In this document: positions 16,488 to 19,400 of the stretch, one piece after another
How positions within the stretch are numbered: the stretch's first letter is position 1
Layout: every line of letters starts with the position of its first letter
Origin: Schmidtea nova
Taxonomy: Eukaryota
DNA length: 64,000 bases
Assembly: GCA_044892505.1 (NCBI GenBank)
Contig: CM097882.1
Coordinates: 277,078,001 to 277,142,000, forward strand
Direction: 5' to 3'
Translations under genes and position numbers: made by a program
The notes under the pieces: model-generated
What the model was told of the DNA's origin: nothing
The model's database searches: none
Seen by the model: the letters and a program-made list of their open reading frames with translations, nothing else

Positions 16488-19400
16488 CTATACAACTATT
16501 ACTGGTTTTCCTTCGTACAGTTCCTCGTCCTCGATCTGTACCCACATCTCTTCATGTCTTGATCGTCTTTTCAGCTCTTCTCGTACTTCTTTTGGTAGTT
16601 TTATGTTGTAATTCGTGACCTTTACGTCCGGCCATTTTACTGCTATGGTCTTATTTCTCATGCCATATCTCCAACATACTATCATGATCGTTATCAGCGG
16701 TATACACCCTATGAATACTCCCATACTGATTAATCCCATTATTGTTTTCCCGATGCTCATTTTCGGAGCTTCACTTTGGTTTATCATCACGCCATATTGA
16801 CCTTTCCATTCTGCTTCCCATTGTTCATATTGTTGTTGTCTCCGTCTGACTTCTTCAATCACTTTCTCTGGTTCCCATCTTTCTTGGCGGTTTGGTATTG
16901 TTTCTTCCTTCTCGTTTTGTTCTCTCTTCTGACTCAATTCTCGGAATTCTAACTTTCTGATTCTCCTCTTTATCGGCGTGTAATAGGTTTCGCACCTTTC
17001 TTGTGGATTTCCTTGTGTATCCACTTCTTCAATTGCACACACTTCGTATTCTGCGTTTGTTTTCAACTTCCTCATTTCTACCTCAATAATTTCTCCTTTG
17101 TCATCTGCGGTCTTTTGACATCTTCGTGGAGACTTTCCCATACTGTTTGGCATTAATGTCCAACAGATTTCTAGGACCTTTTTATGGATCTTCCATATTA
17201 TCAACGTTGTTGATTCCGATTCGTGTTCTATTGTCGTGCTTTCTGTGGTTGCCTGTTGAGTTCCTTGACTGTTTGTTGTCGTGGTTCTTTTTGACTTTCT
17301 TTTCCTCTGTCGACTTCCTCCCATTTCAATCGTTCTTGTTCCGTTAATTTGCTCTGGCGTCTTGTACAGTTTGCACTCCAGGCTTCTTAGTATTATTTCT
17401 CTTATTCTTCGAATTACGCAAATTTCGTAGGTTTGTCCGACTTCGAATCCATTTAGTTGAAACGGGATTCCTCGTTCTCTCGTTCTGCATTGCGGTAGTA
17501 CGTGACTGGTCGATACTCCGATGTATTTTCTCCAACACATCCCAATTGTTCTCCGACCAATGTTTTTTATCTCCACTGTTACTACTTCATTCGCAATCAT
17601 TTCTTGATCTTGTTTCTTTCTTTTTGGGAACTCAATTATCTCCTTTGCTTGGAACACTTTACACTCGCTTGTTCCTGGTCTGTTTCCGTTTGCTGCCTTT
17701 TCCATGAGACATAGTTCACATTTTCTATCTGTCTCCATTTCGGTTATCTCAATTTCTTCGTTTGTCTCCGCCTCTCGACTTTCTCTTGTTTCGCTGATTC
17801 CAATTACCTCATTGTTTCGTCCCCAACATCTTCCATTCGTTGTTCGTTGATCTTGGATGTTTACTATCGTCATCACGCTGATATCTATGTCCTCCATGAT
17901 TCTCTTAATGAGGATTAATATTAATGCTACACATATCAATTCTGGTTGGAATGTTAATTTGCCCGCTGGATTTTTGGTTATTCTTTCTTTCTCTGTTCGG
18001 TTTCTGATTCCCTCTTCTGCTTCCGTTTGATTCTTCCCTTTCTCTGGTTCTACTTCTGTTCTTCTCGTTGTCTCTTCGCTTCTTTTCTCAATCCATTTCT
18101 GTATTTTCAGCGCTTCTGTTGCTTTATATAATTGACATGCAGTTACTTGAGGTGCTTTTGGTTCTCCTCTCTGCTTTATTGCGCATATTATGTATGATTT
18201 TTCTTTCTCCAATCCTTTGATTTGGATGACGTCTCGCTTCAGATCTGACAATATACACTTCAGCGTATCGTTTTTCTTCAGGTTTTCTTTCCAGCATATT
18301 CTTTCGTATACTTCATTTCCTCTGATTATCTCTAGCGTGACGTATTGTTTCTTGGCTTCTCCTTGTCCGATGATTGTTATCAATATCGCAATACACAACA
18401 TTTCCGGTCTCAAAAGTAGACTTCCTGTTCGTTTTCCATAGTTCGCACTTTCGTCTTTTGTTCCTCTGTTTTCTCGTTCTTCGGCTTCTCCTTTCTTGTC
18501 TTTCTCCGTTGGCTTCGGTTCTTCTTGTCTTTCTTTTTCATTATCCTCCGTTCTTTTGTTGTCATTGTCTTCGTTGTTCTCTTCGTTGTTGCTTTTGTCG
18601 TCGAAATCTCTGTAACCACCCCCTGGTCCTTTGAAAATGTCGTCCTCGACATTAATTTCTTCAATCAATCTTTCATACTCTTGAACCGCGAGTGTGCTAG
18701 ACTCGAATTCACGTATTTCCATATCCTTGGATGGTTCTATGTCTTTTAGTCTACTTTGCTTGATCGTTTCTTTGGCTTTTGTCCACTCATTCACATACTT
18801 CCTGAACGAGTCTTTCCATCTTCCCGTTCGTTCGGGTTCCTTTGGATTGTTCGTGAACTTCAAATCTCTTCTCTTTAAGAATTCTTCTACTATCTCTGGC
18901 TTTTTGTGTATTAATAACGCGCTTCTGATACACCAATTCTGATTCTGTTCCATCTGATCATTGATCTTGAACGCTGGTTCCTTGGTGATCGGATTCACCC
19001 ATGTTAGTAATGCTCTTGTTTTCTCTACGTCGTGTATCATTACTGTTAGACTGAAATTCTTTACGTTATTTGCCAGGTATTCTATGTCCTCATGTCTCTT
19101 GATGGACTTTATGAACTTGATCATCTCGAAGTTGTTCCACTGTATTGCGATATCTATGATGGAATTATTCTTTCCATTTTTCCCTTCGATTTTTGCTCCT
19201 GCTTCGTATAATTCATTTAGCACTTTCAACTTCGTCTTCTTTCTTGCTGCGATTATCATGATTGTATCTCCATTATCATCAACCGTATTCGTGTCTGCTT
19301 CGCACTTGACCATTGCTTTCGTTATTTCTAGCACTTCGTTTTCTTTCTTTCGACGTAATGCCCAGTGTATCGGCAATCTCCCATCCTTTGATAATAGGAA

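Follow-up and report, generated by a model that had tools for sequence, protein, structure and literature searches.

Planarian genomes carry giant Ty3/gypsy retroelements of the Burro/GYPSM1 type, which are about 30 kb long and encode a single polyprotein of about 5,000 amino acids (aa) in which env lies between gag and pol in the same frame, together with ankyrin repeats and TRAF/MATH cargo (PMC6431247; statements on this and the other papers cited here apply to those parts of them available to us). Related errantiviruses of the GAG-ENV-POL HSV/gB type from Platyhelminthes, Nematoda, and Bryozoa share the gag-env-pol order and have a class III, gB-like Env (Chary and Hayashi, PMC13524379). 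We have analyzed a stretch of 64,000 nucleotides from Schmidtea nova (GCA_044892505.1, contig CM097882.1, positions 277,078,001 to 277,142,000), called the window here, which contains a long terminal repeat (LTR) element of 29,445 bp whose LTRs, 3,298 bp each, are 100% identical to one another and which is flanked by a 4-bp target-site duplication, GTCG. The element matches the Burro type in size, long LTRs, single polyprotein, gag-env-pol order, and ankyrin and TRAF/MATH cargo, and it resembles the errantiviruses in its order and its class III gB-like Env. For further motifs of the Burro type (BIR, BCL2-like, ubiquitin-like, and dUTPase-like), a Pfam scan of 12 segments of the window open reading frames (ORFs) with a threshold of E 0.1 gave no match.

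A difference lies downstream of integrase. The available description of Burro mentions neither a fibronectin type III (FN3) domain nor a second signal, and no membrane protein at the C-terminus (PMC6431247); only chromodomains are described after integrase in the available text on the errantiviruses, whereas the window element has ankyrins followed by an FN3-like surface module. The words "fibronectin," "ankyrin," and "accessory" are absent from the main text of the latter paper, as are "fibronectin" and "FN3" from seven of its supplements (PMC13524379). In the literature searched, judged mostly from titles and the beginnings of abstracts, we found no FN3 surface protein described after integrase, although the module may be mentioned in Repbase entries or in the repository of Chary and Hayashi.

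A selected FN3-like module at the end of the Gag–Env–Pol frame

The module comprises the last 650 residues of the polyprotein, in the order H1–R1–linker–H2–R2–R3–Thr-rich linker–R4–stalk–transmembrane segment (TM)–60-aa tail (Table 1). H1 and H2 are hydrophobic segments, and R1 to R4 are Cys-patterned repeats of about 85 aa, R1 lying downstream of H1 and R2–R4 downstream of H2. An initial annotation of the window had proposed two paralogous hydrophobic segments ahead of such repeats, then a TM and a tail, and this is borne out. In an ungapped comparison of H1 with every 17-mer of the polyprotein, H2 scores 47 and the runner-up 20; the two share 29 of 51 bases, and by these comparisons they are paralogues. 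All six repeat pairs score above shuffles (z 4.3–7.0, the score being reached in at most 5 of 2,000 shuffles). Because the four repeats cluster apart from sister-family repeats (support 0.935), the signal-plus-repeat cassette was probably duplicated within the window lineage. The span first proposed, 16660 to 18405, needs correction: H1 starts 14 bases beyond its end, and the stop (16488) and an EELYE motif in the tail (16512–16526) lie outside its start. The statement that the module is not a fusion protein also stands: the PF24664 match lies upstream, between gag and the protease, with none in 16491–18449.

The repeats are FN3-like, as had been suggested, in the window family (family A) and in two related families, B and C. 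At the Pfam fn3 cut-off of 25 bits there is no match for the window repeats, and the homologous module of family C scores 28.8 bits; with E up to 1, 4 of 29 repeats match. The AlphaFold and structure-comparison check proposed earlier, run on R3, gives a beta-sandwich that superposes on FN3 (predicted local distance difference test score (pLDDT) 81); DSSP assigns the repeat model six strands of at least three residues, where FN3 has seven. FN3 hallmarks include a B-strand Trp and a Leu-x(4-5)-Tyr motif in the E–F region; in the window, all four repeats have the Trp and three of four the F-strand Tyr. Single-sequence AlphaFold of the whole module reached a pLDDT of only 35.5 and gives no place of H2 in the fold. 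A viral structure library gave no match at E 0.001, PDB sequences gave none for R3–R4, and a profile of 35 host FN3 exons revealed no clear host donor (the element profile reaching 5.7 bits at best).

The module is under selection. In a search of the genome, the 68 copies scored among 3,610 candidates were all 92–100% identical; a frame of more than 5,000 aa was found in 19 of these 68, two of which had a stop inside the match. Searching with R4 alone (150 of 719 candidates scored) reached copies down to 61% identity. For 45 copies, 27 at nucleotide identity of at least 93% and 18 below, the ratio of nonsynonymous to synonymous substitution rates (dN/dS) over the whole module was 0.19 and 0.20; the comparisons are non-independent, sharing one reference, and post-insertion decay raises such values rather than lowering them. 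H2 was lowest or joint lowest (0.04 and 0.08), followed by H1 (0.08 and 0.13) and R1, and the linkers were highest (0.17–0.47). R1, R3, and R4 retain their Cys quartets; the Cys of R2 are relaxed. EELYE, singled out initially, is present in the tail as stated but is excluded as a conserved motif: among older copies covering the tail the Leu occurs in 0 of 17 and the Tyr in 16 of 17.

These values bear on whether the module could be a neutral captured host fragment without function. The window module does lack database homologues, with 0 among 6,705 candidates, 0 among the 2,256 in the whole-polyprotein length range, and 0 among 1.84 billion representatives. Against this, dN/dS is near 0.2, many copies are intact in frame, and the same slot is filled throughout the group (see below), so that a neutral origin of this kind is very improbable.

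Membrane topology around the second hydrophobic segment

The doubt raised initially, that the second hydrophobic segment makes the topology uncertain, is real: H2 is the most constrained segment, lacks a signal-peptidase site, and is roughly TM-like in hydrophobicity. Signal-peptidase cleavage is judged only by the −3/−1 rule, which the G-E-A end of H1 fits, and the N-region of H1 is common to the single signals of families B and C. In H2, KR and acidic residues come after a strongly hydrophobic core of 11 residues, and there is no such cleavage site. Insertion energies on a rough scale are 0.15 for H2, −0.24 for the Env TM, −0.07 for the last TM, and 1.03 for H1, which would make H2 about as hydrophobic as the TMs and more favorably inserted than H1. 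Conservation of the sequons named initially is uninformative on topology and was dropped: NDT is kept in 5 of 12 and NGT in 13 of 15 older copies, and a tail sequon is equally well kept.

One signal, an ectodomain, one TM, and a cytosolic tail fit family C and eight of nine relatives, to which the window family adds H2. We favor a cytosolic tail with R3 and R4 outside, given that the sister family has only one signal and that the C-termini are of PDZ type. A single segment cannot span the membrane between two external domains, and yet the quartets of R1, R3, and R4 are all conserved and the tail has a cytosolic look. Three arrangements can be considered. First, as in sister family C, all four domains may lie outside, H2 either crossing the membrane in passage or dipping into it from outside; we lean tentatively toward this arrangement, the simplest for a single product, at somewhat short of an even chance.

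Second, each chain could give one of two products. Where H1 is used, translocation would stop at H2, leaving R1 outside with H2 as its anchor; where H1 is skipped, H2 would act as an uncleaved signal-anchor, leaving R2–R4 outside and tethered at both ends. The duplication would then yield two surface proteins, a matter of topology only and compatible with adhesion or decoy function. The strong constraint on H2, the preservation of the H1 cleavage site and the H2 KR in almost every older copy that spans them, the Cys kept on either side of H2, and the rough energies (H1 weak, H2 marginal) are all consistent with this. However, because families B and C manage with a single, equally weak signal, H1 should be used efficiently, and no splice acceptor before H1 or H2 stands out among 720 YAG sites (best rank 140). 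We regard two products as possible but unlikely.

Third, H2 could be a plain stop-transfer segment, with R1 alone outside, R2–R4 cytosolic, and the last segment inverted. The hydrophobic core followed by KR, the near-zero energy of H2 on the rough scale, and the relaxed Cys of R2 would suit it. The conserved quartets of R3 and R4 would not; moreover, the Thr-rich linker, stalk, TM, and basic tail are laid out as in single-signal family C, and PDZ-type ends require a cytosolic tail. This arrangement seems improbable.

A group-wide slot and its possible function

The initial annotation missed that the module is common to a wider group of elements. An Env-region search returned 12 polyproteins, of which three end earlier and nine extend past integrase; eight of these nine carry the signal–ectodomain–TM–tail arrangement there, P0008 being without a module. 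The genome also contains two smaller gag-env-pol families, of 3,401 and 3,393 aa, that end in a signal, beta-rich ectodomain, TM, and tail; the ORF downstream of each (L022:5458-6909 (-), L027:2950-3945 (+)) resembles, by eye, a DEDDh exonuclease. The post-integrase surface-protein slot is thus group-wide. Its ectodomains vary, that of P0013 being different and Cys-rich, and Leu-x-x-x-Thr-x-Tyr-like motifs were seen by eye in those of relatives. Applied to the modules of both smaller families and to those of eight relatives from the database, a Burro-repeat profile did not detect FN3 and a host profile barely did. A profile of 13 candidates, picked circularly by motif, exceeded 5 bits in 10 of 35 host FN3 and in none of the 330 shuffles listed, with profile–profile probabilities of at most 20%. 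Because these ectodomains failed the profile tests and the motif-picked test was circular, we claim FN3 for families A, B, and C only. An integrase tree is mostly unresolved and gives no dates.

The S/T-x-V end, the class I PDZ consensus, occurs in 7 of 12 TM-bearing modules against a background of 0.0065, in about four independent lineages. In the window family, 41 readable tails end in VIVV (18), VTVV (12), or other residues (11).

Separately, seven of the nine relatives (P0002, P0003, P0006, P0007, P0008, P0009, and P0011) have a further aspartyl-protease motif (D-S/T-G-S) after integrase, preceding the second signal where one is present and bringing the protease motifs of each polyprotein to three; release of the surface module may be its role. 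At that position the window element has ankyrins, and it has one protease motif.

The module, then, is predicted to form a second surface protein beside the class III fusogen, and we put at about even the chance that it is an adhesion or cell-contact factor aiding passage of particles to neighboring cells. In the sequence of events that we infer, Pol and the ankyrins would be made in the cytosol, H1 would restart translocation, and signal peptidase, cutting after G-E-A, would free the module. Its FN3 domains would fold in the endoplasmic reticulum with disulfides, H2, a signal duplicated together with one repeat, most likely not spanning the membrane in the working product. The last TM would serve as anchor, and at cell contacts host PDZ scaffolds would retain the tail through its C-terminal motif, as with HTLV-1 Env. 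Because it is cut from the same chain, the module would be made 1:1 with Gag and Env, and would reach the same membrane.

Alternatively, the FN3 protein could be a host-signaling decoy or immune modulator, on or shed from the host cell, that binds a ligand or receptor of the host. It would then belong, with the TRAF, IAP, Bcl-2-like, and ankyrin cargo, to the element's kit and would not be a particle component. A TRAF ORF lies directly downstream, and ectodomains vary widely among lineages. Family B (L034-L036, L038-L040, L029-L031), a high-copy, BIR-bearing family (150 of 1,295 candidates scored), also bears on this. It encodes a protease, ankyrins, the FN3-like repeat, TRAF, IAP, and two signal-plus-TM ORFs (275 and 270 aa); Gag, Env, reverse transcriptase, and integrase were not found in the nine tiles tested, and it is a non-autonomous cargo element. 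Because its frame closes with signal, one repeat, and stop in four of four copies, it would secrete the repeat in soluble form. But dN/dS is 0.40 for this repeat and 0.12 for the ankyrins (four non-independent pairs), and a core Cys is lost in two of four copies, so it may be a decaying remnant. Further, the smaller elements, in which no TRAF/IAP cargo was seen, keep the module with its membrane anchor, in the same frame as Gag and Env. A decoy is a minority possibility. A helper of spread is favored because of in-frame co-synthesis, retention in small elements lacking visible cargo, and the tail motif.

Element layout and relation to known systems

Table 1. Features of the LTR element in the window
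Feature	Position	Strand	Basis or remark
3' LTR	9173..12470	(-)	3,298 bp; 100% identity with 35320-38617
Downstream accessory TRAF-like ORF	14510..15940	(-)	RING, zf-TRAF, MATH (Pfam)
Single 5,086-aa stop-to-stop frame	16488..31748	(-)	Gag, zinc knuckles, Env, protease, reverse transcriptase, RNase H, integrase, ankyrins, surface module
60-aa tail, acidic Tyr motif, hydrophobic C-terminus VIVV	16488..16670	(-)	copies compared
C-terminal transmembrane segment	16671..16751	(-)	aa ~5000-5026; hydropathy 2.5 over 19 aa
Stalk	16755..16970	(-)	hydropathy; dN/dS 0.25 and 0.17
R4, FN3-like repeat	16971..17216	(-)	repeat comparison
R3, FN3-like repeat (modelled)	17349..17597	(-)	pLDDT 81; FN3 structure matches
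R2, most degenerate FN3-like repeat	17640..17897	(-)	Cys retention 69-100% among older copies
H2, duplicated signal-like hydrophobic segment, then KR, no cleavage site	17901..17957	(-)	start aa 4598
R1, FN3-like repeat, four Cys	18114..18353	(-)	repeat comparison, copies
H1, predicted internal cleavable signal ending G-E-A	18354..18419	(-)	start aa 4444; orthologous to single signal of families B, C
Ankyrin-repeat region	19107..20408	(-)	Ank_2 E 2.8e-21
Protease, reverse transcriptase, RNase H, integrase	21243..24071	(-)	Pfam RVP, RVT_1, RT_RNaseH, Integrase_H2C2, rve
Class III fusogen (Monjiviricetes_fusion PF24664)	24549..26465	(-)	E 2.5e-72; internal signal and TM by hydropathy
5' LTR	35320..38617	(-)	identical to 3' LTR; GTCG target-site duplication

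Pfam matches along the polyprotein run from zinc knuckles through fusogen, protease, reverse transcriptase, RNase H, and integrase to ankyrins. Several other features accompany them. A 206-aa ORF (12675-13295 (-)) with hydrophobic stretches N- and C-terminal of a coiled region is possibly a third membrane protein. Spacers between the downstream ORFs (16490-16380, 16014-15940, 14510-14430 (-)) contain recurring TGTAAA/TGTATA words, and two of them terminate in YAG adjoining the next ATG. The stretch adjoining the 5' LTR (35280-35319), resembling the 3' end of tRNA-Pro, is primer-binding-site-like. The leader between LTR and gag (32245-33480) holds tandem arrays of 85–91 bp and 19 bp. The element sits in an older, broken gypsy element (3702-9186 and 38567-41869), and a 231-bp stretch is present twice (7846-8076 and 41774-41998). 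Apart from element-borne TRAF copies, a dense MATH-domain cluster on one chromosome arm (G000:C2:405-455 Mb) is a possible donor pool.

Accessory and surface proteins of other systems offer partial parallels. HTLV-1 Env has a C-terminal class I PDZ-binding motif that is tied to cell-contact spread (PMC4810129); a PDZ-type end on a retroviral surface protein is common to both, but in HTLV-1 the motif is on the fusogen itself and in the window element on a separate FN3 protein, in this copy ending VIVV. The sORF2 of MDG1-group retrotransposons is a short, FAST-like accessory membrane protein for cell-to-cell spread that replaces Env (PMC11952523), whereas the window module is a multi-domain FN3 protein alongside Env. 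The planarian secretory cell nidovirus has a single giant polyprotein whose ankyrin and fibronectin-named domains are proposed to help in shedding or transmission (PMC6211748), but the latter are type II, not type III, domains, of a different fold, in an RNA virus unrelated to the window element. The copies of Burro elements in planarian genomes number in the thousands, and support of stem cells and regeneration has been reported for Burro1 (as cited in PMC13465017).

Our findings bear on whether Burro elements spread between cells. They suggest that the Env of such elements is only half of an entry or host-contact apparatus. The predicted second surface protein, conserved and selected, with a putatively junction-targeting tail, offers a concrete target for antibodies, for knock-down, and for the search for receptors.

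Herpesvirus gB is a class III fusogen that works with separate receptor-binding proteins, gD and gH-gL. The window fusogen and module may be likened to these in arrangement only. More speculatively, and doubtful as a whole, flatworm-type gag-env-pol retroelements could be two-glycoprotein viruses, producing from one polyprotein both a fusogen like gB and a receptor-binding protein, a captured FN3 protein whose tail is PDZ-targeted; the window family would have doubled the signal-plus-domain cassette, and a capsid-less satellite family would secrete a soluble copy competing for the same receptor. If true, this would bring to reverse-transcribing elements, where it is undescribed, a herpesvirus-like division of labor.
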